Shown here piece by piece: positions 27,959-48,402 of a stretch of 64,000 bases of DNA; position 1 is the first letter of the stretch, and each line of letters begins with the position of its first letter. Below the pieces are notes generated by a model that made no database searches, was not told the DNA's origin, and worked only from the letters and a program-made list of their open reading frames with translations. Source of the DNA: an uncultured Acidobacteriota bacterium. Lineage in GTDB: Bacteria > Acidobacteriota > Vicinamibacteria > Vicinamibacterales > CAVVIG01. The stretch spans positions 110,386-174,385 of the forward strand of contig CAVREM010000112.1 of assembly GCA_963720005.1 (NCBI GenBank), read 5' to 3'. A program made the translations under genes and the position numbers.

Positions 27959-28027
27959 TCGGGAGTCGGGAGTCGAGAGTCGGTAGTCAGTGGCTTCAAC
28001 CCCGAGTCCCGAGCACCGAGCCCCGGT
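27957..28027. repeat. Heptamer inverted array (AGTCGGG / CCCGAG)
   Basis: agtcggg agtcggg agtcgag agtcggt ... ccccgag tcccgag caccgag. Confidence 0.75.
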
Positions 28028-28648
28028 TCAGGGTTTGAGTATCTGCCCGCCAGCGATGTTCCGGCTGATGCCCTTGAGCCGAGACGCTCTGCAGGTAATC
28101 GCTGATTTCGAGCACCTTCTTGAAGACCAGCCGTCCGAACGCGTCAAGACTGGTCGATTCGTCGGGCCGGCCGAACACGGCGTCGCCCGCATCCTCGATC
28201 TCGCGCTCGGCGAGCGTGCCGAGCGTGGCAATCACTTTCGCGTAGTAGCGGGCCGCGCTGGCAGACGATCGGGGCTTCCGACGCGGATCGCCAACGCCAA
28301 CGGATTCGGGACCTCGGCATGTTCGGTGACGCTACCGTCCGGGCTCGTAGACCGCGAACTCGCGGCCCGATGGCGTGCAGCGCCAGCCGGAACACGCGCA
28401 CGACCGCCGGGTACACGAGCCGATCCCAGACCGGGCGCCGCTCCCAGACTTCGGTATGGATGCGCAGGTGGACCACGCCGCCCCGGTCGACGGTCTGACG
28501 GAACCGATCAGGCAGCACGTCGCGCAGCTCGATGGAGGCCGTGACTTCGGCGGCCGCCGAGCGGAGGTCCTTGACCTCGACGCCGAGCGCTGCGGCGTCG
28601 GTCGCCGATCGACAACGCGAGGAGGCACGCGAAGACGGCCAGCCTCAC
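28028..28648 (-). CDS. Exported hypothetical protein (DUF4390-like, tentative), several frameshifts
   Basis: Signal peptide; ELRDVLPDRF...EVWERRPVWDRLV; ATLGTLAEREI...FKKVLEISDYL. Confidence 0.55.
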
Positions 28649-28654
28649 TGGTGG

Positions 28655-30325: not shown

Positions 30326-30708
30326 TCAGGTCACTGTGACGAAGGGCGTCTCCACGAAGTTCCCGTCCGTGAGCCTGAAGAGCCTGACTTCGCCTCCCCC
30401 GACGATGAGATACAGGTGGCCGGGGTAGGTGGCCTCGGCCCGGTCGGTTTCGGACGGCCGGGCGGCGGAATGTGGATGCGAATGGTAGAAGCCGACGACG
30501 GCAAGCCCCGCCGCGCGCGCCCGACGCCGGATATCGATGTGATCTTCGGGATCGAGGAAGATACCGGTTCGGGTCGTCCGCGAGGTTTCGCGCTTCGACC
30601 GCCTGGAGGATCTCGCCCTCCCGGCCGACCAGCACGCCGCAGCACTCGCGGGGTTTCGCACGCTCGGCGTGGCGGACGATCGCATCCAGAGCTGAGCGCG
30701 AGCGGTGC

Positions 30709-30710
<2 letters not shown>
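30326..30710 (-). CDS. JAMM/MPN+ (Mov34, Mec-like) metalloprotease; frameshift, start approximate
   Basis: PRECCGVL then GFYHSHPHSAARPSETD. Confidence 0.88.
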
Positions 30711-31973
<1,263 letters not shown>

Positions 31974-31981
<8 letters not shown>

Positions 31982-32628
31982 ACGTTCCTACCTTTTCAGC
32001 CACGATGAGATCCGCGCCGGTGGCCGCCTTCACCTTCTCGACGGTGGTGTCGCCGGCGATTTCCCGCAGCACCAGACCGGCCGGCGTGACGTCGATCACC
32101 GCCATCTCGGTCACGATCATGTTGACGACCTTGAGGCCCGTGAACGGCAGCGTGCAGCGCTTCAGGATCTTGTGGCCGCCGTCCCTCGTCGTGTGCTCCA
32201 TCGCCACGATGACTTTCTTGGCGCCGGCGACGAGATCCATCGCGCCGCCCATGCCCTTCACCATTTTCCCCGGAATCATCCAGTTGGCCAGGTTGCCTTC
32301 CTGGTCGACCTGCAGCGCGCCGAGGACGGTCAGGTCGATGTGGCCGCCGCGCACCATCGCGAACGAATCGGCGCTGCTGAAGTACGAGCAGCCCGGCAGC
32401 TCGGTGACCGTCTCCTTGCCGGCGTTGATGAGGTCGGGGTCCACTTCCTGCTCGGTCGGATACGGTCCAACGCCGAGCATGCCGTTCTCGGAGTGGAGCG
32501 TGATGTCGATGCCCGGCGGGACGTAGTTGGCGACCAGCGTCGGCATGCCGATGCCGAGGTTGACGTAGTCGCCGTCCTTCAGCTCGCGGGCGATGCGCTT
32601 GACGATGCGTTCGCGAATGGTCTGGCAT
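31974..32628 (-). CDS. scoB: 3-oxoacid CoA-transferase subunit B
   Basis: [15 protein letters not shown] (catalytic Glu), GMGGAMDL. Confidence 0.92.
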
Positions 32629-32633
32629 GAGCG

Positions 32634-33323
32634 CTATCTCGTCGTCCGCTTCTCGATCCGCTTCTCGTAGCTCGCGCCCTGGACGACGTGCTTCACGAAG
32701 ATCCCGGGGGTGACGACGTGATCGGGATCGATCGCGCCGGGCTCGACGAGGTGCTCGACCTCGGCGATGGTGACGCGCGCCGCGGTCGCCATCACCGGGT
32801 TGAAGTTGCGCGCGGTGCGGCGGTAGACGAGATTGCCGACGCGGTCGCCCTTCCAGGCGCGCACGAACGCGAAGTCGGCGCGAATCGGCAGCTCGAGCAC
32901 GTAGGGCGTGCCGTCGATGACGCGCGTCTCCTTGCCTTCGGCGACGAGCGTGCCGTACGCGGTGGGCGTGAAGAAGCCGCCGATGCCGGCGCCGCCCGCG
33001 CGAATCCGCTCGGAGAACGTGCCCTGCGGCACGAGCTCCACTTCGAGCTCGCCGGTCAGGTACTGCCGCTCGAACTCCTTGTTCTCGCCGACGTAGGTCG
33101 AGATCATCTTCCGCACCTGCCGCGATTTCAGCAGCACGCCGATCCCGAAGTCGTCGACGCCGGCGTTGTTGCTGATGACCGTCAGGTCCTTCGTTCCGCG
33201 CGCGTGCAGCGCCGCGATCAGGTTCTCGGGGATGCCGCACAGGCCGAAGCCGCCCATGAGGATGGTTGCGCCGTCGGGGATGAGCGCGACGGCCTCCTCG
33301 GCGCTCGCGAGGACTTTGTTCAT
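32634..33323 (-). CDS. scoA: 3-oxoacid CoA-transferase subunit A
   Basis: [39 protein letters not shown]. Confidence 0.94.
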
Positions 33324-33349
33324 CGCCAAGCACTATAACTGACGGCTGT

Positions 33350-33420
33350 AATTAGGAATTTGGAATTTGGAATTTGGAATGCGTTCACGAATTCCTAATT
33401 CCTAATTCCTAATTCCAATT
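33350..33420. repeat. Heptamer inverted array (AATTTGG / AATTCCT)
   Basis: AATTAGG(AATTTGG)x3 AATGCG ... (AATTCCT)x3 AATTCCAATT. Confidence 0.88.
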
Positions 33421-34314
33421 ACGCTCTTTTGACAGCGCCCGCGCCAGCGGTGGGCCTGCTCGAAGACGTCGGCGAGGCGATCGCCGTCCCGGAGGTCGGC
33501 GCGCAGTTCCTGCAGCAGCGAGATGAGGGTGTCGAGCGCCTCGCCGATCTCATCGGCGTTGGTGGCGGCGATGTCCTTCCAGATCTCGGCCGGGCTCGAG
33601 GCGAGCCGGGTCGTGTCGACGAGGCCGCGGCCGGCGAGCGCCAGGCCGTCTTCGCCGACGGCCTCGCCGACGACCTGCATCAGCGCGCTGGCGGTCAGCT
33701 GCGGAAGATGGCTGAGGAACGCCAGCAGCCGATCGTGGCCGGCGACGCTCACGGTACGCGGCACGGCGCCGAGCGCCCGAGCGAACGCCGTCAGCTTCTC
33801 CAGCGCGTCGCCGCCGGCGTCGCTGGCCGGCGTGAACAGCCAGGGCCGCCCTTTGAACAGATCGGGCCGCGCGTTCTCCAGGCCGCTCGCCGCCGCCCCG
33901 CCGAGCGGGTGCCCGCCGATGAACGTGAAGCGCGGCGGGAGGCGCTTCGCCGCATCGACAATCGCCCGCTTCGTGCTGCCGGTATCGGTGACGACCGCAG
34001 GCTGCCGGACGTTCTCGTCCAGCGCGTCGAGCAGCGCGAGGTTCTGGCGCACCGGCGCGGCCAGGATCACCAGGTCGGCCTCGGCCAGGACGATCAGGTC
34101 GTCGGCCGCGACGTCGATGGCGTGCAGCCGCATCGCCGTCTCGAGGACGTCCTTGTTGTCGACCGCGATCACGAGCGACGACGGCCAGAGCTGCCGCGAC
34201 GCCAGCGCGATCGATCCGCCGATCAGGCCCAGGCCGACGATGCCGATCTTCTGGAAGATCGGCGGCTCGGCCGGCGCGCGGCAGCGCGCCCGGCTGAATG
34301 ACGGGAAGTTCCAT
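33402..34314 (-). CDS. tyrA: Prephenate/arogenate dehydrogenase
   Basis: GIVGLGLIGGS, TDTGSTK, GGHPLGG, HDRLLAFLSHLP, DTTRLASS. Confidence 0.92.
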
Positions 34315-34328
34315 CGCTTAGTCGATCT

Positions 34329-34370
34329 CGCCAATCTGACAATCTGAAATCTTACAATCTGTAAATTTCA
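34329..34370. repeat. CAATCTGA-type tandem array
   Basis: caatctga caatctg aaatctta caatctg taaattt. Confidence 0.7.
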
Positions 34371-34381
34371 CCGAGTCACTC

Positions 34382-35431
34382 TCACACTCCCCATCCTCTC
34401 CGCGCGACCGGCTCAAGGCAGATGCTGCGGCCAATCGCCGGCGCGATGATGCGCAGCTCGGCCATCAGCCGATCGAACTGCGCCGGGAACATCGACTGGG
34501 CGCCGTCGCTCAACGCGTGATCCGGGTCGCAATGCACCTCGATGATCAGGCCGTCGGCGCCGGCGGCGACCGCCGCGCGCGCCATCGGCGCCACCATGTC
34601 GCGGCGTCCGGCGCCGTGGCTCGGATCGGCGACCACCGGCAGGTGACTGAGCTTCTTGACGACCGGGATCGCCGAGATGTCGAACGTGTTGCGGGTGGCG
34701 GTCTCGAACGTCCGGATGCCGCGCTCGCAGAGGATCACGTCGGTGTTGCCGCCGCTCAACACGTACTCCGCCGACAGCAGCCACTCTTCGATGGTCGCCG
34801 AGATGCCGCGCTTCAGCATCACGGGCTTGCGCGTGTGCTGCCCCAGCTCGCGGAGCAGCGTGAAGTTCTGCATGTTGCGCGCGCCGACCTGGAAGATGTC
34901 GCAGTACTTCTCGATGAGCGGGATCTGGCTGATGTCCATGACCTCGGAGATGAGCGCCATCCCTTCGGCCTTGGACGCGTCCTGGAGCATCCGCAGGCCC
35001 TCTTCGCCCAGCCCCTGGAAGCTGTACGGCGAGCTGCGCGGCTTGAAGGCGCCGCCCCGGAAGACTTTCGCGCCGGCCCGCCGGACGGCCGCGGCCGTCG
35101 TCCGCACCTGCTTCTCGTTCTCGGCGGAGCACGGCCCGGCCATGACGATCACCTCGTCGCCGCCGATCCGGATGTCGCCGACCGTGACGATCGTGTCCTC
35201 GGGCTTGTAGGTGCGGCTGGCCAGCTTGTACGGCGACGAGATGCGGACCACCTCGTGCACGCCCTCCATCATCTCGATCAGCCCCGGGTCGGGGTGGCCC
35301 TGACCGACCGCGCCCAGCACGGTCCGCGTCACGCCCGTCGACCGGTGGACGTCCATGCCCATTTCGACCAGCCGCGCGACCACCTGCTCGATCTGGGCTT
35401 CCGTCGCGCGCTCCTGCATCACCACTACCAT
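34382..35431 (-). CDS. aroF: DAHP synthase type I-beta with an N-terminal regulatory domain
   Basis: [43 protein letters not shown]. Confidence 0.95.
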
Positions 35432-35443
35432 TGGCTACTCCCG

Positions 35444-35520
35444 CTGAAATTTCAGATTGCAGATTTCAGATTTAAGATTTCCTTCAGACTTCAGACTTCA
35501 GACTTCAGACTTCAGACTTC
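35444..35520. repeat. Heptamer array AGATTT(C/A) plus (TTCAGAC)x5
   Basis: Five exact TTCAGAC copies at 35483-35517; contains the chorismate mutase stop. Confidence 0.9.
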
Positions 35521-35801
35521 GTGTCCTCGCCGTGCACGACGCGGCGTTCCAGCCGCCGCGCTTCGTCGATGATGCGTTCGAACAGCCGGCCGATCGCCTC
35601 CGGCCCGAGCGGGCCCTCGCACGCGACCTCGCGCACGTGCTGCAGGACCTCCTTCTCGCGCTCGGGTTGATAGATCTCGATGCCCAGCTCCTTTTTCAGC
35701 TTGCCGATTTCGCAGGCGCAGCGCGCGCGCTCGTTCAGCAGGCGCACCAGCACTTCGTCGACGCGATCGATGTCCTTCCGCAGGTCGTCGAGTGTCCGCA
35801 T
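35505..35801 (-). CDS. Chorismate mutase (AroQ)
   Basis: LDDLRKDIDRVD...LLNERA...IYQPERE...LFERII. Confidence 0.92.
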   Translation of the reverse strand: MRTLDDLRKDIDRVDEVLVRLLNERARCACEIGKLKKELGIEIYQPEREKEVLQHVREVACEGPLGPEAIGRLFERIIDEARRLERRVVHGEDTKSEV

Positions 35802-35803
35802 GG

Positions 35804-36640
35804 TCACATGGCTCGCGGGGCGCCGTGCCCGCCCGCGCAGATCGCTGCGTCCTTCAGCGATCGAACGTATGCCTCGACCCGTTCGACGAGCGCCGGCGTA
35901 CCCGCGCGATTCGGCGATGAGCGACACGAGCGCGCTGCCGACGACCGCGGCGTCGGCATATCGGCCGACCTCGGCGACATGCTCGGGCCGCGAGATGCCG
36001 AAGCCTAGCGCGATTGGCAGCGTCGTGTGCGCGCGAATTCGCCGGACCAGCGCCTCGGCGCCCGTCGGCGACCCGATCCCGGGCCCCGGTCACGCCAAGC
36101 CGTGAAATCCCGTAAAGGAATCCCCGCCCGAGCGCGGCCGCCGTGCGGATGCGCGCGTCGGTGGTGGTCGGGCTCAACAGGAATATCGTATCGAGCCCCT
36201 GCGCCGCCAGCGTTTCGCGAAACTCGGCCGCTTCTTCGATCGGCAGATCGAGGGCGAGCACGCCGTCGACGCCGGCGGCGGCCGCCCGGCGCGCGAACGC
36301 GTCGACGCCCATCCGGAGCATCGGGTTCGCGTAGCTGAACATCACGATCGGCGCCGCAGACGACGGGCGGATCCGTTCCACCAGCGCGAGGCTTTCGCGC
36401 AGGTTGCTGCCGGCGGCCAGCGCGCGTTCGGTCGCCCGCTGAATCACCGGGCCGTCCGCCAGCGGATCCGAGAACGGCACACCGACTTCGATCACGTCGG
36501 CGCCGGCGCGATCGAGCGCCTTCAGGATCTCGGCGGACGTCGCCAGATCGGGATCGCCGGCCGTGACATACGTGACGAGGCCCGGTCTGGCGGACGCGCG
36601 TGCGGAGTCCGTCGAAGCGCTCAGCGATCCGCGAGCCCAA
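35804..36640 (-). CDS. trpA: Tryptophan synthase alpha (frameshifted)
   Basis: [38 protein letters not shown]. Confidence 0.95.
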
Positions 36641-37830
36641 GATGCTTCTCCACCGAATGGACGTCCTTGTCTCCGCGCCCCGAGAGGTTCACGAGCACGA
36701 TCGCGTTCCGTCCGAGCTCGCCGGCGAGCGTCTGCGCGTAGGCGACGGCGTGCGACGACTCCAGCGCCGGCAGGATGCCCTCGAGACGCGCCAGGGTCTG
36801 AAAGGCAGCCAGCGCCTCGGCGTCGCTGACGTGAACGTACTCGGTCCTGCCCTGCGCCCGCAGCCACGCGTGCTCCGGGCCGACCGCGGCGTAATCGAGG
36901 CCGGCGGAGACCGAATGCGTGAGCTCGATGTTGCCGTCCTCGTCCTGCAGCACGTAGGTGCGCGTGCCCTGCAGCACGCCGGCGCTGCCGCCGGCGAACC
37001 TCGCCGCGTGGCGGCCGCGCGCGATGCGCTCGCCGCCGGCTTCGACGCCGATCAGCCGCACGCTCGCGATCGTCGATGAACGCGTCGAAGATGCCCATCG
37101 CGTTGCTGCCGCCGCCGACGCACGCGACCACGGCATCGGGCAGGCGTCCGGCCAGCTCGAGGATCTGCGGCCGCGCCTCGCGGCCGATGACCGCCTGGAA
37201 CTCGCGCACCATCAGCGGGTACGGATGCGGCCCCAGCACCGAGCCGAGCAGGTAGTACGTGTCGCCGACGTTCGTGACCCAGTCGCGCATCGCTTCGTTG
37301 ATGGCGTCTTTCAGCGTGCGGCTGCCGGCGTCGACGCCGCAGCACCTCGGCGCCCAGCAGACGCATCCGGAAGACGTTCAGCGCCTGCCGAGCCATGTCC
37401 TCGGCGCCCATGTAGACGTGGCAGTCGAGGCCGAGCAGCGCGCACGCCGTCGCCGTCGCCACGCCGTGCTGGCCGGCGCCGGTCTCGGCGACGATCCGCC
37501 GCTTGCCCATCCGCACCGCAAGCAGCGCCTGGCCGAGGGCGTTGTTGATCTTGTGCGCGCCGGTATGGGTCAGGTCTTCGCGCTTGAGAAAGATCCGCGC
37601 GCCGCCCGCCGCCTCGGTCAGCCGCCTGCCGGGTAAACGGGCGTGGGCCGGCCGACGTACTGCGTCAGCAGCCGATCCAGCTCCGCAGGAACGCTGCATC
37701 GTCGCGCGCCGCGAGATACGCGCGTTCGAGCTCCTCGATAGGCTCGACGAGCGTCTCGGGCACGAAGCGTCCGCCGAATTCGCCGAAATAGCCCCGTGCG
37801 TCCGGGTCGCGGCGGGTTGCGATGCGTCAT
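36621..37830 (-). CDS. trpB: Tryptophan synthase beta (frameshifted)
   Basis: [47 protein letters not shown]. Confidence 0.96.
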
Positions 37831-38456
37831 GGCTCTCCCACAGTGGCGCAGGTTGACGGCGTCGAACAAGCGCCCGCAGCCGCGCGTGATCTTTGACGCC
37901 GGGCGACGACTCGACGCCCGACGAGACGTCGATGCCGAACGGCTGCACCGCCCGGATGGCGTCGGCGACGTTTGCCGGCGTCAATCCACCGGCGAGCAGT
38001 ACCGGGCCGGCGGGCGGCGATCGACGGCAGCGCGCTTCCAATCGACCGTCCTGCCCGGTGCCGCCGCGCTTCTCGGGGTCGTGCGCGTCGATCAGCAGGC
38101 GCACGCGTGACGGCCACGCGTCGGCGTCCTCGGCGCCCATCAATCGCCAGTCCCAACGCCTTCACGACCGGCCGTTCGATGTGTTCGAGCACGTCGATGG
38201 TCTCATCTCCATGGAGCTGCACGGCGCTCAACCCGACACGCGCCGCCACCCCGTTGACCAGGCGCGGCGGCTGATCCACGAACACGCCGACGGTCGTCAC
38301 GAACGGCGGCAGCCGTGAGACGATCGCGCGCGCCTGCTCGGGATCGACATACCGCGGACTCTTCGGCCAGAACACGAAGCCGAGCGCTCCGGCGCCGAGC
38401 TCGACGGCTGCCTCGGCGTCCTCCAGCCGCGTGATGCCGCAGATCTTCACGAGCAT
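37827..38456 (-). CDS. trpF: Phosphoribosylanthranilate isomerase (frameshifted)
   Basis: VKICGIT, SPRYV, VQLHGDE, GGTG, LAGGL, DVSSGVE. Confidence 0.95.
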
Positions 38457-38472
38457 TGGACCGGCTTCTGAG

Positions 38473-38547
38473 ACCACGGAGGACACAAAGGACACGAAGG
38501 AAAAGCCATTAGGGTCTCACCTTCGTGTCCTTAGTGTCCTTTGTGGT
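38473..38547. repeat. 9-mer inverted array (AAGGACAC-type)
   Basis: ACCACGGAGGACACAAAGGACACGAAGG ... CCTTCGTGTCCTTAGTGTCCTTTGTGGT; 28-nt arms with 3 mismatches. Confidence 0.9.
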
Positions 38548-39358
38548 TGGAACAACCGCTGTTCAAGAGGTCTCTCAACGCCGCGCCCGGATCGTCCGTC
38601 GTCATGAACCGCTCGCCGATCAGAAACGCGCGGTACCCGAGTGCCATGAACCGGGCGATGTCGGCGGGCGTCTTGATCCCGCTCTCGCTCACTGCCGTCA
38701 CCCCTTCGGCATGCGCGCGATCAGCTCTTCGGAGACATCGAGGTCGACCGCGAGCGTGCGGAGATTCCGGTTGTTGACGCCGACGAGGTCGGCGCCGGCG
38801 TCGACGCGGCCATCAGTTCGTCGCTGCCGTGCACCTCGACCAGCGCATCGAGGCCGAGGTCGCTGGCCTTTGCCATCAGCCGCGCGAGCTCGGCCGGGCG
38901 AAGCGCCGCCGGCAATCAGCAGCACGGCATCTGCTCCTGCAGCCCGCGCCTCGAGCAGCTGATACTCCGAGACGATGAAGTCCTTCCGGAGCAACGGAAC
39001 GTCGACAGCCGTCCGCACCCTGGCCAAGTCGTCGAGCGACCCGTCGAAGAAGGTCGGCTCCGTGAGGACCGAAATCGCCGCCGCGCCGGCCGCGCTGTAT
39101 CCCCGCGCAATCGCAGCCGGGTCGTAATCGGCCCGAAGCACGCCCCGGGAGGGCGAGCGGCGCTTGCATTCGGCCACGATGTTGACGCGATCCGGTCCGG
39201 CTCAGCGCCGCGCGGAACGCGCCGGGCCTGGTGTCTGTTCGCTCGGCGCGCGAGCGCCAGTCGCGCAATCGGCTCCTGCTCGGCACGCACCTCGACGATT
39301 CGCCGCGTCGCGGCGACGATGGTCGCGAGGAGGTCGGCGCGCCCGCGGTCGTCGTCAT
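38531..39358 (-). CDS. trpC: Indole-3-glycerol phosphate synthase (frameshifted)
   Basis: AECKRRSPSRG, ISVLTEPTFFDGS, LRKDF, GVNNRNL, ESGI, LIGE. Confidence 0.94.
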
Positions 39359-40395
39359 GCTCCGGCTCCTGCGGTCGATTCCCCGGCCGCCGACAGCGCA
39401 GCCATCCGCTCGAGCGCACGCGCCGCGTCGCCGCGATCGATGGCGCCGGCCGCCTGCGCCATGCCGTCCGTCAATCGACGCGGCCTTGCCGGCGATGAAG
39501 AGCGCCGCGCCTGCATTCAGCACGACGATGTCGCGCGCGGCGCCGCGCTCGCCCGCGAGAACCGTCCGGATGATTCGCGCATTGTCTGCAGCCGTGCCGC
39601 CCCGAATCGCCGCCGGCGTGCGCCTTGGGCAGTCCGACGTCCGCGGGATGGAGATAGAACGTGTTCACCGACCCGCCGCGGCACTCCGAGATCTTGGTGT
39701 AGCCGGTCGTCGAGATTTCATCGATGCCGTCGGACCCGTGAACCACCCACGCGCGCTTCGATCCCAGGAGCAGGAGCGACCGCGCGAGGAGCTCGGTGAA
39801 CTCCGGCCTGGGCACGCCGACCAGCTGATGCGATGCCCCAGCCGGGTTCGTCAGCGGGCCGAGCAGGTTGAACGCGGTCCGGACGCCGAGCGCCTTGCGC
39901 GTGGGTCCCGCGTGCCGCATGGATGGATGGAACGTCGGCGCGAAGAAGAAGCCGATGCCTGCCTCCGTGAGGCATCGTTCAACGACGTCGGGCGGGGCGG
40001 TCACCTTGACGCCGAGTGTTTCGAAGACGTCCGCGCTGCCGCACTGGCTCGACACAGACCGGTTGCCGTGCTTCGCGACCCTGATACCCGCGGCGGCGAC
40101 GACGAGCGCCACGGCGGATGAAATATTGAAGGTACCGGAGCGATCGCCGCCGGTGCCGCAGGTGTCGAAGACGTCCTCGAACCGGCGGGAGACGCCCACC
40201 GCGTGCGCCCTCATCGTGCGCGCCAGCCCGACGATCTCGGCCGGCCGCTCGCCTTTCATCGCGAGGCCGATCAGCAGCGCCGCGATCTGTGCGTCGGCGG
40301 CACGGCCCTCCATCACCTCGCCCATCGCCGCCGCGGCCTCCTCGCTCGTGAGGTCCTCGCGCCGCATCAGCTTTTTCGATCAGTGCGGAAAACAT
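39355..40395 (-). CDS. trpD: Anthranilate phosphoribosyltransferase (frameshifted)
   Basis: DTCGTGGD, NISS, KHGNRSVSS, FNLLGPLTNP, GIDE. Confidence 0.95.
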
Positions 40396-40399
40396 CCGG

Positions 40400-40973
<574 letters not shown>

Positions 40974-40984
40974 AAGAGCCGTGA

Positions 40985-41051
40985 GAATTTAAGATTTCAG
41001 ATTTAAGATTGCGTCAGATTTCCTGAAAATCCAAAATCTGATCTTGAATTC
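40985..41051. repeat. AGATTT(C/A) heptamer inverted array
   Basis: AATTTAAGATTTCAGATTTAAGATT is identical to part of the left arm of 7776-7901. Confidence 0.88.
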
Positions 41052-41056
41052 CATCA

Positions 41057-42532
41057 TCAGAGTCCCGCCTGGGCGAGCTCGAGGGCGCGGAGAAGCGCCC
41101 GCGCCTTGTCGCGGGTCTCCTCGTACTCCGCCGTCGGATTGGAATCGATGACGATGCCGGCGCCTGCCTGCACGTAGGCGCGGCCTTTCGACATGATGAC
41201 CGTGCGGATCGCGATGCAGAAATCGAGGTTGCCGGCGAAATCGACATAGCCGACGGCGCCGGCGTAGAGGCCGCGGCCGGCCGGCTCGATCTCGCGGATG
41301 ATCTGCATCGCGCGCACCTTGGGCGCGCCCGACACCGTTCCGGCCGGGAAGCAGGACACGAGCGCGTCGAGGCGATCGCGATCCTCGGCGAGCTTGCCCT
41401 CGACGATCGACGTCAGGTGCATGACGTGCGAAAAGCGCTCGAGGCCCATGAACTGGGGGACGCGGACCGAGCCGTAGTCGCACACACGGCCGACGTCGTT
41501 GCGGCCGAGATCGACCAGCATCACGTGCTCGGCGCGCTCCTTTTCGTTCCGCTTCAGCTCTTCGGCCAGGCGCATGTCCTCCTCGTTGGTCCGCCCGCGC
41601 GGGCGCGTCCCGGCGATCGGATGCGTCTCCACGCGGGATCCCTCGACCCGGACCAGCATCTCCGGTGACGATCCGACGACCGCCACGCCGCCCATCCGGA
41701 TGAAATACATGTACGGCGACGGGTTCACGTGCCTGAGCGCGCGGTAGACGGTGAACGGATCGGCCGCAACCTCCGCCTCGAACCGCTGCGACAGGACCAC
41801 CTGATAGATGTCGCCGGCCGCGATGTACTCCTTGCCCTTCCGGACCTGCTCCTCGAACTGCTCGCGCGTGCGATTCGACCGGACGTCGAGGCATGGCGGG
41901 CGATCGGGTCTGGCTGTCACGGAGAGATTGCGCTCGAGCTCGCGCTCGAGGAACTGGATCTTCGCGCAGGCGAACTGGTACAGCGCCTCGAGGTCGTCGT
42001 CGGCGGTGATGCGCGCGTTGGCGATGATCAGGATGCGGTGCTGGACGTGGTCGAACGCGAGCACCGTGTCGAACAGCATGAAGCCGGCCTGATCGGCCCC
42101 GTCCGAGGCGTCGCCGATGTCGCCAAGCACCGGCTCGAACCACGACGCCGCCCCGTACCCGAGGTAGCCGACGGCGCCGCCGGTGAATCGCGGCAGGTCG
42201 GGGACGAACGGCGACCGGAAGTCGGCCATCAATCCGCGCAGCGTCTCGATGAACGGCCGCTCGCCGTCGGTCACGGTGCCGCCGCGCTCCAGCGTGGTCC
42301 GGCCGTCGCGCGCGCGCAGGATCAGAAACGGGTCCTTGCCGAGAAACGAATAGCGGCCGACGTGCTCCCCGCCCTCGACGCTTTCGAGCAGGAAGGCATA
42401 GTCGGCGTCCTCGGCGATCTTCAGGAACGCCGACACGGGCGTCAGAAGGTCGGCGACGATCTCCTTGCAGACCGGCACGAAGGTGCCCCGCCGCGCCAGC
42501 TCCTTGAACTCCTCAAACGACGTGATTTTCAT
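41057..42532 (-). CDS. trpE: Anthranilate synthase component I
   Basis: FLLESVEG, NPSPYM, PIAGTR, EHVMLVDLGRND, GTVSGAPK. Confidence 0.96.
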   Translation of the reverse strand: MKITSFEEFKELARRGTFVPVCKEIVADLLTPVSAFLKIAEDADYAFLLESVEGGEHVGRYSFLGKDPFLILRARDGRTTLERGGTVTDGERPFIETLRGLMADFRSPFVPDLPRFTGGAVGYLGYGAASWFEPVLGDIGDASDGADQAGFMLFDTVLAFDHVQHRILIIANARITADDDLEALYQFACAKIQFLERELERNLSVTARPDRPPCLDVRSNRTREQFEEQVRKGKEYIAAGDIYQVVLSQRFEAEVAADPFTVYRALRHVNPSPYMYFIRMGGVAVVGSSPEMLVRVEGSRVETHPIAGTRPRGRTNEEDMRLAEELKRNEKERAEHVMLVDLGRNDVGRVCDYGSVRVPQFMGLERFSHVMHLTSIVEGKLAEDRDRLDALVSCFPAGTVSGAPKVRAMQIIREIEPAGRGLYAGAVGYVDFAGNLDFCIAIRTVIMSKGRAYVQAGAGIVIDSNPTAEYEETRDKARALLRALELAQAGL

Positions 42533-43989
42533 CGGCGATGAACTCCGTGAGTTTCCGCTCCGCGGCGGCGCGCATCACGCCCGTGGGGGGCTTCGTTCCT
42601 GTCCACCAGGAGAACTGCTCCTGCGCCTGGGCGACCAGCATGTCGAGACCGCCAATCGTCACGCAGCCAGCTGCCGCCGCGTCGCGGAGCAAACGCGTCG
42701 CCGGCGGGTTGTAAACGAGGTCGTACACGTATCGACCTGAAAGGGCCGCGGCAGGCAGGGGCGACTGATCGAGGTGCGGGTGCATGCCGACCGGCGTGCA
42801 GTTGACGAGCAAGTCCCAGGTGTCCGGCGCCGGCGGCCACGGAGCGGCTCGTACGCCCACCGCTCGCGCCGTGTCCTGCGCCCGTCCTGCGTCGCGGGCA
42901 TGGATGGTGACCTCGGCGCCGGCGTCATCCAGGCCAACGGCGACGGCGCGCGCGGCGCCGCCACCGCCGAGTACCGCGGCCCGGACGCGCGTCAACGGCA
43001 CGCCGGCATCGATCAGCGGCTGAAGAAACCCTGCGACATCGGTGTTGCCGCCGATCCATCGCCCTTGTTCGAGGCTGATCGTGTTGATCGCCCCGACGCG
43101 ACGGGCGACGGCTTCCGCCTCGTCGACGTGGTCGAACAGCGAGACCTTGAACGGAATGGTAATGCTGGCGCCCTTCACACCAAACGCGCGCACAAACCTG
43201 ACGAAATCGTCGGCGTCAGCGGCTGGCAGCGGCAGGTACACGGCATCGATGGACGTGGCCTTGAAGGCCGCGTTGTGCATGTCGGGAGAAACCGAGTGGT
43301 CGATGGGTGACCCGACCAGACCGTATAAAGCCGTTTCCGATCCGAGCGCTCGGAATCGATACGTGTCCAGCAGGGCTTCGGGCGAGAGTTGTCCGACCGC
43401 GTTGAGCGAACCGCCGTACGACCATTCGGAGGAGAAACGGCACGGCAGCACCCGCGTGATGAGTCCCTTCGAGCCCATGGCAATCAGGACCACGGCGCCG
43501 TCGCGCCCCATCGCCTGTCCGAGCTCGGCGAGCGGGATGCAGTCGCCCAGGCGCTGCGCGGTGACCGCAATCTTGACGACCTCGGCGCCGGTCCTTCGCA
43601 TCGCGTGGGCGCGTTCCGCCAGGTCGGCGGGAACCGATTCGAAGTCATGGGACGAAACGACGATTCGGCGGCCGCCGGTCTGGCTCACGGAGATCGCCGA
43701 AGCCGGCGCGCCATTCGATGTCGACGTACTCCGCGCCGCGCGCCAGGGCCTCACCGAGGATCCGCCGGCGTTCTTCCTCTGAGCCGTCGAACCGCCCGCC
43801 TTCCCATGTGGGCCGGCAGGTGACGATCGCCGGCAGCCGCCGGCCGGCGAGCGCTCCCGCGACGTCCGGATCGCTGACGCCGTCGAGCCTCAGCTCGACG
43901 AGATCGGCGTCGCGCACGCCGTCACGGCGACGGCGGAGTTCCGCCGTCGAGGTCGCCGTCACGGTGACGCACAGCCGTGGTTTCGTCAT
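42513..43989 (-). CDS. aroE: Fused type I 3-dehydroquinate dehydratase / shikimate dehydrogenase (frameshift near 43690)
   Basis: VELRLD, YVDIE, SSHDF, VKIAV (AroD), then HSVSPDMHN, TIPFK, GAINT, NTD, GGGGAA, NCTPVGM, DLVYNP (AroE). Confidence 0.92.
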
Positions 43990-43996
43990 ACGTTTC

Positions 43997-44021
43997 GGCG
44001 GGCCTAAGAGGCCCGCCCTAC
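43997..44021 (-). repeat. GTAG-type REP
   Basis: Minus strand GTAGGGCGGGCCTCTTAGGCCCGCC. Confidence 0.8.
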
Positions 44022-44029
44022 ACCGAGTC

Positions 44030-44066
44030 AAAAAAAAAGCCTCTTCAGGGTCAGCTGAAGAGGCTT
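44030..44066 (-). terminator. Intrinsic terminator (attenuator) in the leader of the aro/trp operon
   Basis: AAGCCUCUUCAG-CUGACC-CUGAAGAGGC followed by a U9 run. Confidence 0.93.
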
Positions 44067-44089
44067 GAGATATCGCGCGTGGTGGACGA

Positions 44090-44197
44090 TCAGGCCAAGG
44101 CGACTGCCTCTTCAATCGAGCGCCAATACCACCGCCACGCAGACGATGAGGCACTCGTCTGCTGGCAGGTAAATGCAACTGTGCTGAACAGGTTCAC
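44090..44197 (-). CDS. trpL: Attenuator leader peptide, 35 aa: MNLFSTVAFTCQQTSASSSAWRWYWRSIEEAVALA
   Basis: GTG start with GGGAAG SD; W-R-W-Y-W codon cluster; stop about 23 nt before the terminator. Confidence 0.88.
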   Translation of the reverse strand: MNLFSTVAFTCQQTSASSSAWRWYWRSIEEAVALA

Positions 44198-44219
44198 TCG
44201 GCTTCCCACGAGACCACGG

Positions 44220-44249
44220 ACGATAGCAGAGGGCCCGCGCCGCTGTCAA
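44220..44249 (-). promoter_or_regulatory. sigma70 promoter of the aro/trp leader
   Basis: TTGACA-N18-TATCGT with a TG extension. Confidence 0.75.
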
Positions 44250-44268
44250 ATATCGTGCCCATTTCTCC

Positions 44269-44297
44269 TTGACCAGTAAGCACTTCTCCTCTATAAC
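44269..44297 (+). promoter_or_regulatory. sigma70 promoter of the S55 peptidase operon
   Basis: TTGACC-N17-TATAAC. Confidence 0.75.
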
Positions 44298-44308
44298 GGA
44301 AAGAACCC

Positions 44309-46163
44309 ATGTCGCCACGCCGAGCCGCAATCCTGCTGGTCCTGAGCCTGTTGACGGCGGTCGGCTATCGCGTCGGCGCGGCCACGCCGCAGATGCCGGT
44401 GTCCGAAATCCGGCCCGGCATGGTGGGCGTCGGCCACACGGTCTTCGCGGGCACCCGCGTCGAAGAGTTCCGGGCCAACATCATCGGCGTGATCGAGAAC
44501 GTCATGGGCCCCCGCCGGAACCTGATTCTGGCGAAACTCGAGGGCGGGCCGCTCGCTGACACTGGCGTCATCGCCGGGATGAGCGGAAGCCCGGTCTATA
44601 TCAACGGCCGTCTCATCGGCGCCGTTTCCTACTCGCTCGGCAGCTTCTCCAAGGAACCGATCGCCGGCATCACACCCATCGAGGAGATGACCGAAGAAGC
44701 GGTCCTCACGACGCCGCGGCCGGCCGGCGCGCGCGTGCACCTCGAGTTCCCGCTGACGCGCGACAATCTGATCGCCGCGTTCCGGAAGGCCCTGAACTGG
44801 AACCGGCCGTTTGCCGATCGGCCGTCCGACGCGCAATTGGTCGGTGCGACCGCCGTCGCCGGCTTCGGTCCGAACGAACTGGGCACGATGCTGCGGCCGA
44901 TTGCGACGCCGCTGGTGATGGGCGGATTCGAACCCGATTTCGGGGCGATGCTCGGCGCGGCCTTCCAGGATCAGGGGTTCGTTCCAACCGGCGCGGCAGC
45001 GGGTCTGCGGCCGGGCGACATGCCATTCGAGGGTCCGCTCAAACCAGGTGACGCGCTCGGCGTGACGTTCGTCAGCGGCGACTTGCTCCTGGGCGGAACC
45101 GGCACCGTCACCCACATCGATGGCGACCACGTCTACGCATTCGGTCACCCGATGTACAACCTCGGACCGACCCAGTTCCCGATGACGCGCGCGTACGTGT
45201 ATACGGTCCTGCCGAGTCTTTTCTCGTCGACGAAGCTGTCGACCACGAGCGAGGTGATCGGGACGCTGCTCCAGGATCGCGCGACGACGATTGCCGGCAA
45301 GCTCGGCCCGGGTCCTGCGCTCATTCCGGTGACGCTGACCCTCGAGGCCGAGCGCGGGTCGCGCCGCACGTTCAACTTCGGCGTCGTGAAGGACCAGCTG
45401 TTCACGCCCCTGATGACCTACTCGGCGCTCGTCAACACCTTGTTGTCGTACGAGCGGCAGAACGGAACGGCGACGTTCGCGGTGACGGGTTCGGCCACCC
45501 TGAAGAATCATGGCGTCGTCACCTTCGACAACCTGTTCTCCGGCGGAGATTCTCCGGCGATCAGCGCCGCGGCGTCCGTCATCGCGCCGGTCACGACGCT
45601 CGTCAACAACGACGACGAGGCGGTCGAGATCGAGCGGCTCGACTTGACGATGAAGACGTCGGAGGAGCCGAGGACTGCGACTCTGCAGCGCGTGTGGATC
45701 GACGACCCGCGGCCGCGCGCCGGCCGATCGGTGCCGCTGAAGGTGCACCTGCGCACGTATCGCGGCGAGGACGTCCTGCGGACCGTTCCGATCGAGATCC
45801 CGGCGACCGCGCGCGGCAGCCTGCAGGTGGTCGTTTCGGACGGCCAGCGGCTCGGCGTGGCCGAGCAGCGCGAGGCGCGTGTCATCGCAACCTCGAACGG
45901 TCGAGCAGCTGGTGCGCATGATCAACAAGGGCCGCCGGAACAACACGCTTTACGTCAAGCTGCTGAGCGGCGACGCTGGCGCAGTCGTCAACGGCGAGCT
46001 GTTGTCGGCGCTGCCGCCGTCCGTGCTCGCTGTCCTCGAAGCCGATCGCAGCGGCGGTAACTTCAACCCGCTCTACAGCGCCACGCTCGGCGAGTGGGAG
46101 ATCCCCACGGCGCACGCCGTAACGGGCGTACGGACGCTGACCCTTGCCGTCTCGCCGAACTGA
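44309..46163 (+). CDS. Secreted SpoIVB-family (S55) serine peptidase, frameshift near 45885
   Basis: Signal peptide, GVIAGMSGSPVYINGRLIGAV, GITPIEEM, AFGHP. Confidence 0.88.
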
Positions 46164-46167
46164 GAAA

Positions 46168-48402
46168 GTGCGTTCGTCCCGCCCAGGATCTGCGCTCCTC
46201 TTGCTGTTCGTTGTCGCTGCAATCGCGGCGGCACAGGCCTCGTCCCCGAAATTTTTCCAGGCTGCGACGCAGGCGGACTTCCTCAAGGGCGATGTCGAGA
46301 ACCTGTCGATCGACAGCCGTGGGCAGTTGCTGCTTGGTCCCGCGATCGAGCTGGTCTACGAGACCGCGTCGCCATTCATCTGGGCGATCGTGCCCGGAAG
46401 CGATGGGTCGCTCTTCGTTGGCACGGGTAACGAAGGCCGGGTCTTCAAAGTCGACGCCAAGGGCACGGGAACCTCGTTCTTTGACGCTGCCGAACTCGAG
46501 GCGCATGCGCTCGCGCCCGCTCCGGACGGCGGCCTCTACGTCGCGACCTCGCCTGACGGGAGGATTTACAAGGTCGATCGCAGCGGGAAGTCGACGACCT
46601 TCTTCGAACCTGGCGAACGCTACATCTGGGCCCTGGCCACGGATGCCAAAGGGTTCTTGTACGCCGCCACCGGTGAGAAGGGCATCGTCTACCGCATCTC
46701 CCCGGACGGAAAGGGCACGCGGTTTTATCAGGCCCGGGCGACGCACGTCACGGCGCTCGCCATCGATCGTGCCGGCAACCTGCTGATCGGAACGGAGTCG
46801 CCGGGCAGGGTGCTTCGCGTCGATCCCGAGGGCAAGGGGTTCGTGCTGCTCGACTCTCCTTTCCAGGAAATCCGCACGCTTCGCTTCGACGCCAAGGGGA
46901 TGCTGTTCGCGGCCGCCGTCAGCGGCGCCGGGGCGTCATCGGCCCCGCCGCCCCGCACCGACGAGCGTCCCGCGGAACGGCCGTCGGAGCCATCGAGCAC
47001 GCCTGTGGCCACGGTCACGACCGAGGTCACCTCGATTGCGGTCGTCGACGTGTCCGGAGGCGGATCAGCTGCGACGACGTCACGGGAGGACCGGCGCGCC
47101 GCGCGCGGAGCGGTGTACCGCATCACGCCCGACGGCCTCTGGGATGAGCTGTGGCAGTCGCGCGACGATTCGCCGTACGACATCGCGTTCGATAGTGAAG
47201 GCCGCTTGATGATTGCCACCGGCAACCGGGGCAAGCTGTTCCGGCTGGAAGGCAATCCGCCGCAGCCGACTCTGGTCACCCGTGCCGACGCGCAGCAAAT
47301 CACGGCCTTTCACCGGGATTCGCGCGGCCAGCTGTACTTTGCGACGGCGAATCCCGGCAAGGTCTTCCGCGTCGGCATGCAGCGCGCCCCGCGCGGCAGC
47401 TACGAATCCGAGCCGCGCGACGCGCAAGTGGTCGCTGCCTGGGGCGCCATCAGCTGGCGGGGTTCGACGCCGTCCGGCACCGACGTCGAGATCTCCACGC
47501 GCTCCGGCAATACGCCCACGCCCGACGACACGTGGAGCGCGTGGTCGCCGGCGTACAAGGATCGGAACGGTTCGCCGATCGTCAGCCCGAAAGCGCGTTA
47601 CCTGCAGTGGCGCGCCGTGCTCAATGGCAAGAACGAGACGCCGATTCTCACGTCAGTGACCGCTGCCTATCTCCAGCGCAACCTGCGGCCCGAGGTGCGG
47701 TCGATTACGGTCCATCCGCCCGGCATCGTCTTCCAGAAGCCCTTCTCGACCGGCGATCCGGATCTGGCCGGGTTCGAGAACCAGACGACACCCGAACGCA
47801 AGCTGACGAACGCCGCGATGACCGCTCAGGGCGCCAGCTCGCCGTCGCTCGGGCGTCGAACGTATCAGAAAGGGCTGCAGACGCTGGTGTGGCGCGCCGA
47901 CGACGACAACGGCGACGATCTGTCGTACCAGATCCGCTACCGGCGCGAGGGCGAAACGACCTGGAGGGTCCTGAGAGAGGACCTGCGCGACGAGATTCTG
48001 GTGTGGGATACGACGACGGTGCCGAACGGCACCTACTTCATGAACATCGTCGCATCGGATGCGCCGTCGAACGCTCCCGATTCGGCCCTCGCGGGCGAGA
48101 TGGACAGCGTCGCGTTTGAAGTCGACAACACCCCGCCGCAGATCACGATTCAGAGTGTCCGGACGGACGGATCACGTCCGTCGGTGACCTTCGAGGTCAC
48201 CGACGATCATTCGCCCATCCTCAGGGTCGAGTGCTCGTACGACGGTCAGGAGTGGCGAGCGGTGTTCCCCACCGATGGCATCGCTGATTCGCGAATGGAG
48301 CGGTACGACGTGGCCCTCGACCGGCCGCTTGGGCCGCGCGGGCTGACGATTCGCGTGACCGATTCGATGAATAACGTGGTGACAGCGCAGGTCGAGCGGT
48401 GA
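46168..48402 (+). CDS. Secreted beta-propeller plus Ig/FN3-like protein
   Basis: About 8 repeats of [aromatic]-x-L-A-x-D-x-x-G-x-L-[YF]-x-[AG]-T-G...G-x-[VI]-[YF]-[RK]; C-terminal WDTTTVPNGTY...VDNTPP. Confidence 0.8.
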   Translation: MRSSRPGSALLLLFVVAAIAAAQASSPKFFQAATQADFLKGDVENLSIDSRGQLLLGPAIELVYETASPFIWAIVPGSDGSLFVGTGNEGRVFKVDAKGTGTSFFDAAELEAHALAPAPDGGLYVATSPDGRIYKVDRSGKSTTFFEPGERYIWALATDAKGFLYAATGEKGIVYRISPDGKGTRFYQARATHVTALAIDRAGNLLIGTESPGRVLRVDPEGKGFVLLDSPFQEIRTLRFDAKGMLFAAAVSGAGASSAPPPRTDERPAERPSEPSSTPVATVTTEVTSIAVVDVSGGGSAATTSREDRRAARGAVYRITPDGLWDELWQSRDDSPYDIAFDSEGRLMIATGNRGKLFRLEGNPPQPTLVTRADAQQITAFHRDSRGQLYFATANPGKVFRVGMQRAPRGSYESEPRDAQVVAAWGAISWRGSTPSGTDVEISTRSGNTPTPDDTWSAWSPAYKDRNGSPIVSPKARYLQWRAVLNGKNETPILTSVTAAYLQRNLRPEVRSITVHPPGIVFQKPFSTGDPDLAGFENQTTPERKLTNAAMTAQGASSPSLGRRTYQKGLQTLVWRADDDNGDDLSYQIRYRREGETTWRVLREDLRDEILVWDTTTVPNGTYFMNIVASDAPSNAPDSALAGEMDSVAFEVDNTPPQITIQSVRTDGSRPSVTFEVTDDHSPILRVECSYDGQEWRAVFPTDGIADSRMERYDVALDRPLGPRGLTIRVTDSMNNVVTAQVER

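Follow-up and report, generated by a model that had tools for sequence, protein, structure and literature searches.

In the trp operon of Escherichia coli, the expression of trpE and the genes behind it depends on a short ORF in the leader in which Trp codons are clustered; the 5' arm of the terminator has an alternative partner further upstream, and the position of the ribosome chooses which of the two helices is formed. The E. coli trp leader peptide has a length of 14 codons. In Bacillus subtilis, the trp segment of the aro-trp supraoperon is governed by the TRAP protein. Song, Bonner, Jensen et al. (2005; PMC1173090) surveyed aromatic supraoperons with predicted attenuators, in which, as in B. 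subtilis aro-trp, a terminator/antiterminator switch precedes a large string of trp, aro, and tyrA genes; the main text of that survey contains no mention of Acidobacteria. A leader with mixed aromatic codons has been described in Corynebacterium glutamicum, where aroR lies upstream of the common-pathway gene aroF (DAHP synthase); as summarized in PMC11802643, it contains Phe-Tyr-Phe without Trp and responds to Phe and not to Tyr (Neshat et al., 2014).

Here, we analyzed a window of 64,000 nucleotides from an uncultured Acidobacteriota bacterium (contig CAVREM010000112.1, positions 110,386 to 174,385). Judged by its sequence, a ten-gene aromatic amino-acid operon of soil Acidobacteriota is headed in this window by a Trp-rich leader mini-gene and a putatively switchable terminator. 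The locus shares with E. coli trpL the short ORF with clustered Trp codons ahead of trpE and the following genes, as well as the alternative upstream partner of the terminator 5' arm, with a choice between the helices that would likewise depend on the position of the ribosome. It differs from E. coli trpL in the length of the leader (35–39 instead of 14 codons), in its three Trp codons being interleaved with Tyr, in having no clear 1:2 hairpin and perhaps a leaderless start, and in an operon that begins with aroD/aroE and also includes the genes for DAHP synthase and TyrA. Neither in sequence nor in structure does it match the Rfam model of the E. coli-type leader (Trp_leader, RF00513; no match at E <= 10 on the window leader and none at E <= 1 on seven related loci). 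Compared by description only, the probable leader-peptide attenuator resembles C. glutamicum aroR in its mixed aromatic control codons and in its place ahead of a common-pathway gene (DAHP synthase in C. glutamicum). In contrast to aroR, Trp dominates here, and common-pathway genes are combined in the operon with the entire Trp branch and tyrA. In contrast to B. subtilis with its TRAP-governed trp segment, none of five near-complete relatives (97–100% complete) has a TRAP gene (TrpBP, PF02081), which the control search did detect in B. subtilis. In the literature, we found no description of a trp attenuator from Acidobacteria or Vicinamibacter in a search covering main texts, and nothing was found on Desulfovibrio leaders. 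The word "tryptophan" occurs 0 times in the text of Rodionov et al. (2004).

Pfam matches in the window identified the gene string aroD/aroE-trpEGDCFBA-DAHP synthase-tyrA behind the leader, all on the minus strand, which bears out the initial annotation in that the attenuator heads the aromatic genes; the order aroD-trp-DAHP synthase-tyrA was seen again in all four testable genomes of other families. The first gene is an aroD-aroE fusion (42513–43989) that encodes a type I dehydroquinase and shikimate dehydrogenase (Pfam domains DHquinase_I, Shikimate_dh_N, and SDH_C). It is frameshifted in the assembly near 43689, and the extra base 43689 is missing from one DNA and two RNA contig sets. The trp block follows from trpE to trpA (35800–42532), with trpE at 42532–41057, trpG at 40973–40380, trpD at 40367 to about 39330, trpC at about 39330 to 38560, trpF at 38495 to about 37860, trpB at about 37850 to 36621, and trpA at 36640 to about 35800; several of these genes are split into frameshifted pieces, and the limits of the frameshifted genes are approximate. 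Behind them are the gene of a type I-beta DAHP synthase with an N-terminal ferredoxin-like domain (34382–35431; DAHP_synth_1, 6e-78; DAHP_snth_FXD, 2e-16) and, as the last aromatic gene of the string, tyrA for prephenate/arogenate dehydrogenase (33402–34334; PDH_N and PDH_C). The gene order suggests that a single switch may govern all ten genes, which would then be co-transcribed. RNA contigs from three metatranscriptome runs span aroD and the divergent gene, not 44030–44215, and transcript ends cannot be revealed by such contigs. Between the terminator and aroD, and outside the switch, there is a GC-rich REP-like hairpin (43995–44016, minus strand), of which near-identical copies occur at other places in the genomes G000–G003, and a soil DNA contig carries a different insert of 34 nt at this site. 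Repeat hairpins are also located between genes of the string, at 41056–40974, 38546–38474, and 35510–35445.

The leader architecture was found upstream of aroD in all 30 loci of the same family, and because of this recurrence it is far beyond chance. The same layout, again with an aroD-like first gene, was present in 18 loci of 11 further families of the Vicinamibacterales, and a covariance model of the leader matched 44 of 49 sampled genomes of this order. Pattern matching, besides the model, gave 108 hits. With a sample of the phylum and a threshold of E <= 1e-6, the model matched 6 of 10 genomes of the order and none of the 140 genomes outside it. Weak matches (E from 1e-3 to 4.5e-7) were obtained in 21 of 101 genomes from other orders of the class; the two that were inspected, L157 and L158, are plain terminators without a leader, and such matches were not counted as members.

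The strong terminator with a U9 tail that had been proposed at 44066–44030 is present as a 12-bp stem (44066–44037) that is followed by a T9 run to 44030, with a folding energy of -19.2 kcal/mol. In the following, we refer to its 5' arm as segment 3 (44055–44066, core 44064–44056) and to its 3' arm with the T9 tract as segment 4 (44030–44048, arm 44048–44037, tract 44038–44030); all of these elements are on the minus strand. Segment 2 (44106–44114), the 5' arm of the antiterminator, lies inside the leader ORF, 9 nt past the last Trp codon. It is letter for letter identical to the terminator 3' arm and therefore a perfect 9-bp complement of the 5' arm at 44064–44056, so that the postulated antiterminator does pair perfectly; in the window, the structure formed by segments 2 and 3 folds at -18.8 kcal/mol.

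That these helices are maintained in relatives, as had been suggested for examination, was seen in an alignment of 46 sequences, which was fitted to a model that included the terminator and not the antiterminator. For the terminator, 99.3% of the alignment cells were paired, with double changes in 5 pairs and 13 cells, and for the antiterminator, 83.5% of the cells were paired, and both partners had changed in 5 pairs and 11 cells. In the antiterminator core, to which 44 of the 46 sequences aligned, 8 pairs were kept in 351 of the 352 lettered cells. The covariation scores of the antiterminator and of the terminator were each matched by none of 500 shuffles, with the reservation that the shuffle and Fisher figures overstate the significance because the sequences are related. 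Inside the family alone (family alignment, 30 loci), there was no covariation because the columns are nearly invariant. Within these 30 loci, the core of segment 3 is invariant, and in other families it changes jointly with both partners. Segments 2 and 4 vary within the family only from A to G opposite U, which alters the encoded residue. This pattern of an invariant segment 3 with partners that exchange only A for G fits the view that one arm may be under constraint from two partners.

A consensus scan placed the promoter on the minus strand at 44220–44249, with the -35 hexamer at 44249–44244, the -10 hexamer at 44225–44220, and a TG just upstream of the latter, in agreement with the initial annotation (TTGACA-N18-TATCGT). 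It matches 10 of 12 consensus positions and is the sole sigma-70-like match in the 14 kb from 30500 to 44500, where 0.9 were expected; judged by eye, the hexamers are found again at the same place in relatives. The spacer has 18 nt in the window, and base 44231 is absent from an independent soil DNA contig (X1), so the true spacer may be 17 nt. The leader mini-gene (44090–44209, minus strand) ends with a TGA at 44092–44090 and has 35 codons from GTG 44197 or 39 codons from the in-frame GTG 44209. Of the previous proposal, the 35-codon frame from GTG 44197 is present as described, but GTG 44197 with its Shine-Dalgarno sequence may not be the start, as an in-frame ATG or GVG is located 9–12 nt past the -10 box in relatives (by eye). 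Were this position to apply, GTG 44209 would be a leaderless start. The leader frame is open through the Trp cluster in all 30 family loci, including one indel-damaged locus (L003), and the N-terminal part of the ORF varies in length and sequence among them. The control-codon cluster Trp-Arg-Trp-Tyr-Trp (44123–44137, minus strand) has three Trp in five codons, with Trp at 44137, 44131, and 44125, Tyr at 44128, and Arg between and after, exactly where the W-R-W-Y-W-R motif had been read. The two Phe codons that had been assigned to the leader are likewise present in the window, as codons 4 and 9, but their position is not conserved.

The spacing of these elements was measured in alignment A4, from whose 46 rows L003, L152, and L153 were excluded because of indel damage or misalignment, leaving 43. 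In 37 of these 43 rows, a gap of 9 or 12 nt separates the last aromatic codon from the segment 2 core, the distance from the last Trp codon to segment 2 is spread from 9 to 24 nt, and the stop codon begins 21 nt past the start of the segment 2 core in 36 rows. This spacing is consistent with a ribosome that would leave segment 2 free when stalled at the aromatic codons and would cover it when located at the stop codon. When we folded the RNA of 30 loci with ribosome masks of textbook footprint sizes, the antiterminator was part of the minimum-energy fold in 23 loci with the ribosome stalled at the last Trp codon, in 21 loci with a stall at the first Trp codon, and in one locus when the ribosome was placed on the stop codon. 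In the fold model of naked RNA, the full-length transcript formed the terminator in all 30 loci, and RNA cut after segment 3 already formed the antiterminator in 19 of the 30, so untranslated transcripts may read through. In the window, the antiterminator was obtained when the A site was placed on the Tyr codon or on either of the first two Trp codons, and a ribosome on the stop codon gave none. An A site on the last of the Trp codons gave no antiterminator in either fold run, and the outcome varies with the chosen 5' end, the antiterminator of the window being absent in one run and present in another.

The whole leader of 194 nt folds at z = -2.96 relative to shuffles, and other helices had been proposed within it. 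The 8-bp hairpin that immediately precedes the first Trp codon (44139–44162, minus strand; arms 44162–44155 and 44146–44139) is present in the window, where it folds better than shuffles (z = -2.7, 2 of 200 shuffles equally good), and may be a pause hairpin. As a general feature it is weak, with a mean z of -0.38 across 30 loci and z below -1.65 in six of them. The Trp-codon block (44140–44132) can pair with a segment downstream of the stop codon (44077–44085, minus strand) in the window, as had been claimed, with 8 of 9 pairs and one C-A mismatch. Within the family, 78% of the cells of this helix are paired without covariation, and outside the family, the duplex energies of cognate and non-cognate combinations did not differ significantly (14 sequences, p = 0.68); we therefore rejected it as a general feature that would be maintained beyond the family. 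A 5' partner of segment 2 that could act as an anti-antiterminator was weakly enriched (mean z = -0.67, p <= 0.05 in 5 of 30 loci), and a convincing 1:2-type helix was not found among the 30 family loci.

The proposal of a trpL-type attenuation has thus gained in weight from the Trp ORF, which is conserved with 2–4 Trp codons per cluster in all 48 leaders, from the covariation of both helices, and from the conserved spacing. On these grounds, the leader is very probably a ribosome-mediated (leader-peptide) transcription attenuator, and as such it is an uncatalogued instance of the classic E. coli-style switch, the principle of which is not new. Transcription would start a few bases past the -10 box at 44220, and the first RNA element would be the mini-gene of 35–39 codons, in which the Trp cluster with adjoining Tyr/Phe is the only conserved coding feature. 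Segment 3 would have two options, namely pairing with segment 2 to form the antiterminator or with segment 4 to form the terminator that precedes the U tract. If charged tRNA-Trp is scarce, the ribosome would stall in the cluster, and scarcity of tRNA-Tyr or tRNA-Phe would probably have the same effect. In this stalled position, the leading edge of the ribosome would end just short of segment 2, so that the free segment 2 could pair with segment 3 as soon as the latter emerges; no terminator would form, and RNA polymerase would continue into aroD/aroE, the seven trp genes, the DAHP synthase gene, and tyrA. With charged tRNAs, the ribosome would move on to the stop codon, located 21 nt past the beginning of segment 2, and cover segment 2, whereupon segments 3 and 4 would pair and transcription would stop at about 44030. 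Pausing may take place at the hairpin upstream of the Trp codons.

The codon content makes it plausible that such an attenuator could sense Trp, Tyr, and Phe together, and a response to charged tRNA-Trp alone has to be weighed against this, in which case the Tyr and Phe codons would be passengers of RNA structure, spacing, or descent. In favor of a Trp-only response, Trp is the sole residue found in every cluster. Tyr or Phe adjoins the Trp codons in 46 of the 48 leaders. Among the non-Trp residues, Tyr and Phe account for 76 of 334 inside the cluster window and for 65 of 1031 in the remainder of the leaders. Depending on the family, the extra aromatic codons, up to four in number, are Tyr or Phe and stand before, inside, or after the Trp run; that they shift in place and identity and yet at least one is kept in these 46 leaders speaks against the passenger view. 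The gap of 9 or 12 nt to segment 2 is held by the last aromatic codon and not by the last Trp codon, and the operon includes common-pathway and Tyr-branch genes, both of which also argue against a pure Trp switch. On the other hand, the two leaders that lack both Tyr and Phe are from one family (G038 and G056), and G038, its one testable genome, still has DAHP synthase and tyrA inside the operon, so the Tyr/Phe codons do not track operon content, in line with the absence of a link between both among five genomes; in G056, the DAHP synthase-tyrA pair is on another contig because the contig of the leader ends first. The Tyr codon is kept within the family at the nucleotide level as an A/T-rich synonym in a G+C-rich genome, which could reflect an RNA constraint, and the Phe-Tyr-Phe leader of C. 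glutamicum reportedly answers Phe and not Tyr (PMC11802643). We regard sensing of Trp alone as a serious possibility, somewhat short of an even chance. The most far-reaching version of mixed sensing would be an attenuator in which one interleaved cluster reads the charging of tRNA-Trp, tRNA-Tyr, and tRNA-Phe, the leader is probably translated from a leaderless mRNA with the first ribosome loading at its 5' end, one promoter sets the level of the common shikimate pathway and of the whole Trp and the Tyr branch, and the design is order-wide with family-specific codon mixes; taken with all of these parts, it is put forward tentatively.

If control did not depend on translation at all, a protein, a tRNA, or a small molecule would act on the leader RNA in a TRAP-, T-box-, or riboswitch-like manner, and the ORF would be incidental. 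The well-structured leader and the conserved segment at 44085–44077, which is outside the attenuator roles, could be accommodated in this way. However, an Rfam scan of the window from 27000 to 47000 gave nothing at the leader, no family reached the gathering score on seven related loci (best E = 0.54), TRAP is missing from the five relatives mentioned above, and an untranslated element would not need a conserved frame, Trp cluster, and stop position next to a free N-terminus, all of which makes such control very improbable. We consider it still less probable that the ORF is simply a gene for a functional small protein with its own terminator, the likeness to an attenuator being coincidental. 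Such a protein could explain the conserved C-terminal tail Glu-Glu-Ala-x-Ala-Leu-Ala within the family, but four loci that keep the RNA pairing have lost the tail or read it in a different frame (the ORF stops right at segment 2 in L009, L152, and L154, and L147 reads segment 2 in another frame), and the A-to-G changes in segment 2 swap the residue and preserve the pairing. From these sequence comparisons, the conservation of the tail is best described as RNA constraint, not peptide constraint. Moreover, the N-terminal part is unconserved, and the terminator directly precedes an operon in which no further promoter-like site occurs.

The Vicinamibacterales are abundant in soil and difficult to cultivate, and to our knowledge their gene regulation is almost completely uncharacterized. 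The textbook principle of attenuation is unchanged by the leader. It is a well-defined, order-wide regulatory RNA that is open to automatic annotation, and it shows where an aromatic operon of ten genes truly begins. The family-specific mixes of Trp, Tyr, and Phe codons represent a natural series in which the tuning of an attenuator by mixed control codons could be studied.

The leader lies on the minus strand, and every element that the initial annotation had placed there was found at its assigned position: a promoter with a -35 hexamer at 44249-44244 and a -10 hexamer at 44225-44220, a 35-codon ORF running from GTG 44197 to the TGA at 44092-44090, Trp codons at 44137, 44131, and 44125 with a Tyr codon at 44128, an 8-bp hairpin upstream of the Trp codons (44162-44139), and a terminator whose 12-bp stem (44066-44037) leads into a T9 run down to 44030. 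The hexamers read as described, and only the 18-nt spacer needs a correction, as it may be 17 nt long, given that base 44231 is missing from a soil DNA contig. A simple consensus scan of 30500-44500 recovered this promoter as the sole promoter-like site and the leader hairpin as by far the strongest terminator-like site. The leader segment 44114-44106, referred to as segment 2, has the same letters as the terminator 3' arm (segment 4) and is therefore a perfect complement of 44064-44056, the core of the terminator 5' arm (segment 3), as stated for the proposed antiterminator. In many relatives, inspection by eye revealed an in-frame ATG or GTG 9-12 bases 3' of the -10 box, and its counterpart in the window is GTG 44209. 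A start at this codon would lengthen the leader to 39 codons and make the mRNA leaderless, as opposed to the originally assumed Shine-Dalgarno sequence with GTG 44197.

Pfam assignments on the minus strand downstream of the leader comprise a fused type I dehydroquinase/shikimate dehydrogenase (aroD, ATG 43989), trpE, trpG, trpD, trpC, trpF, trpB, and trpA, a DAHP synthase with a ferredoxin-like N-terminal domain, and the prephenate dehydrogenase gene tyrA, with CoA-transferase and thiolase genes beyond tyrA. In 4 of 4 testable genomes, from four other families, the DAHP synthase and tyrA genes are found at a distance of 9-10 kb on the downstream side of the leader, in the same orientation; in a fifth, the contig end falls in between. 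The consensus scan of 30500-44500 detected no further promoter-like or strong terminator-like site inside the aromatic gene string, and we infer that all ten genes are transcribed together. In the window assembly, aroD, trpD, trpC, trpB, and trpA are in frameshifted pieces. The genome is 66% complete by marker genes. Two RNA contig sets and one of DNA lack the extra base 43689 that breaks aroD, so this frameshift at least stems from an indel in the assembly and the gene is not dead. The data thus point to indel errors in the assembly rather than to pseudogenes. The leader ORF has the same length and frame as in its closest relative, L002.

Upstream of the leader, a divergently oriented gene, which has a weak S55-peptidase match, begins on the plus strand at ATG 44309, and the leader therefore sits in a divergent promoter region. 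Between this gene and the leader promoter, some 45 bases (44255-44300) are nearly base-for-base identical across the family; on the plus strand they read as a -35/-10 pair, spaced by 17 nt, that ends 11 nt before ATG 44309, and a promoter at this place would yield a near-leaderless divergent mRNA. The spacer of this pair is highly conserved as well. Repeats also occur in the intergenic DNA. Between the terminator and aroD, a GC-rich REP-like hairpin (43995-44016) has near-identical copies at many places in the same genome and in congeners, and a soil DNA contig has a different 34-base insert at this site. Low-GC hairpins of tandem and palindromic short repeats, all without a U tract, occupy gaps in and after the operon (40974-41056, 38474-38546, 35445-35510, and 33350-33420); one of them gave weak microRNA-like Rfam matches on both strands, and they may be processing or stabilizing elements or a mobile repeat family. 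The short tandem repeat run between the attenuator terminator and the first gene at locus L155 (genome G163) is a further case of simple repeats in Vicinamibacterales intergenic DNA.

The leader is conserved in relatives. When an 821-base stretch spanning the region served as query, 56 of 61 related genomes gave a match, and the leader preceded the aroD start at all 30 loci retrieved. In the family of the window, a variable N-terminal part is followed by an aromatic cluster with the basic form Ala-Trp-(Trp or Arg)-Trp-Tyr-Trp. Segment 2 comes nine bases after the cluster and the stop 13 bases past segment 2; beyond the stop, segments 3 and 4, separated by a loop, lead into a T run. The exact core pattern was present in 108 stretches among one-genome-per-species contigs, and 73 of the 80 matches listed were titled Acidobacteria, Acidobacteriota, Vicinamibacterales, Vicinamibacteria, or Terriglobia; the other seven had different titles (Bifidobacteri*, Acidimicrobiia, cyanobacterium). 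Four of these seven (L034, L042, L067, and L092, titled Acidimicrobiia, Bifidobacterium, Bifidobacteriaceae, and cyanobacterium) and the Terriglobia record were inspected, and in all five the leader and flanks were the same as at Vicinamibacterales loci, so the four odd titles are probably binning or labeling errors. Trained on the 30 family sequences, a covariance model matched 44 of the 49 genomes sampled from the order. The matched genomes represent 12 families, and the E-values, from 1e-3 to 1e-30, were mostly at or below 1e-6. Weak matches occurred in 21 of 101 genomes of the other orders of the class, and the two inspected were plain terminators. At E <= 1e-6, a phylum-wide sample gave matches in 6 of 10 genomes of the order and in the window's own genome, and in 0 of 140 genomes outside the order.

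Within the family, segment 3 is invariant and segments 2 and 4 differ solely by A-to-G exchanges opposite U, and hence there is no measurable covariation. Several lineages of other families have an altered segment 3, with both of its pairing partners altered along with it. Pairs were counted in 46 aligned sequences, namely the 30 of the family and 16 of 18 from other families of the order (L155 and L156 fell under the alignment cut-off). The terminator helix was paired in 99.3% of cells, with both-side changes at five pairs in 13 cells, and the antiterminator helix was paired in 83.5%, with such changes at five pairs in 11 cells; its eight core pairs were intact in 351 of the 352 cells that hold letters. 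Both stems thus covary, with 0 of 500 shuffles reaching the covariation score in either case, although these figures overstate independence because the sequences are related. The model used for alignment contains the terminator but no antiterminator, so fitting did not bias the count for the latter.

No clear counterpart of the E. coli 1:2 hairpin emerged: a pairing partner on the 5' side of segment 2 was only weakly enriched (mean z = -0.67; p <= 0.05 at 5 of 30 loci), and the hairpin before the Trp codons was strong in the window (z = -2.7) and weak overall (mean z = -0.38). The suggested helix between the Trp-codon block and 44085-44077 has the complementarity, with one C-A mismatch, and 78% of its cells are paired within the family without covariation; outside it, cognate pairs were no better than non-cognate ones (p = 0.68).

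Several features indicate that the leader is translated and that translation is part of the device. The reading frame through the cluster is open at every locus and the N-terminal sequence is free. The C-terminal tail looks conserved within the family, but this is an RNA constraint, as three loci have the stop right at segment 2, one reads segment 2 in another frame, and its A-to-G changes alter the residue and keep the pairing. Spacing was counted in 43 rows of the alignment, without the indel-damaged or misaligned L003, L152, and L153. The last aromatic codon is 9 or 12 bases upstream of the segment-2 core in 37 rows, and the stop begins 21 bases past the start of this core in 36. Given a ribosome footprint of textbook size, a ribosome stalled in the cluster would reach to just before segment 2, and one at the stop would cover it. 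In masked folding of 30 loci, the minimum-energy structure included the antiterminator at 23 with a stall at the last Trp codon, at 21 with a stall at the first, and at 1 with the ribosome at the stop. The window formed it when the A site was placed on the Tyr codon or on either of the first two Trp codons, and not when the stop was occupied. Without a ribosome, the complete RNA folded into the terminator at all 30 loci. These models depend on where the 5' end is set, and the window result differed between two such choices. Naked RNA cut after segment 3 already contained the antiterminator at 19 of 30 loci, so untranslated transcripts may read through.

The mixed codons seen in the window recur among relatives: the cluster holds 2-4 Trp codons in 48 leaders, and in 46 of these a Tyr or Phe codon lies no more than two codons ahead of the cluster or four behind it. 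Together, these two residues account for 76 of 334 non-Trp residues in this stretch and for 65 of 1031 elsewhere in the leaders (odds ratio 4.4, with a nominal p overstated by relatedness). The two N-terminal Phe codons also invoked initially are not conserved in position and are given no weight here. The arrangement varies among families, with forms such as Trp-Tyr-Trp-Tyr-Trp, Tyr-Trp-Trp-Trp-Tyr, Tyr-Trp-Trp-Trp-Phe, Phe-Trp-Trp-Trp-Tyr, Trp-Trp-Tyr-Tyr-Gly-Phe, or Trp-Trp-Trp-Phe-Phe-Tyr-Phe. The distance of 9 or 12 bases to segment 2 is kept by the last aromatic codon and not by the last Trp, which favors a putative role of the Tyr and Phe codons. Evidence against such a role comes from the two leaders without Tyr or Phe, which belong to one family: the testable genome, G038, still has DAHP synthase and tyrA in the operon, and in the other, G056, the contig of the leader ends before the operon does. 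In addition, the known mixed leader peptide of Corynebacterium, C. glutamicum aroR with Phe-Tyr-Phe, is reported to respond to Phe only (PMC11802643).

The element probably works like E. coli trpL and falls outside the Rfam Trp_leader family. It also differs from the Bacillus aro-trp supraoperon, which is controlled by TRAP; no TRAP gene was found in five near-complete relatives. As aromatic supraoperons preceded by attenuators were already noted in 2005 (PMC1173090) and the Corynebacterium leader is known, neither the attenuation principle nor codon mixing is new. A search of open-access full text retrieved no published account of this element or of any Acidobacteria trp attenuator. That the Vicinamibacterales leader represents an order-wide, uncatalogued attenuator family is well supported, and its possible pan-aromatic response is the more interesting part.
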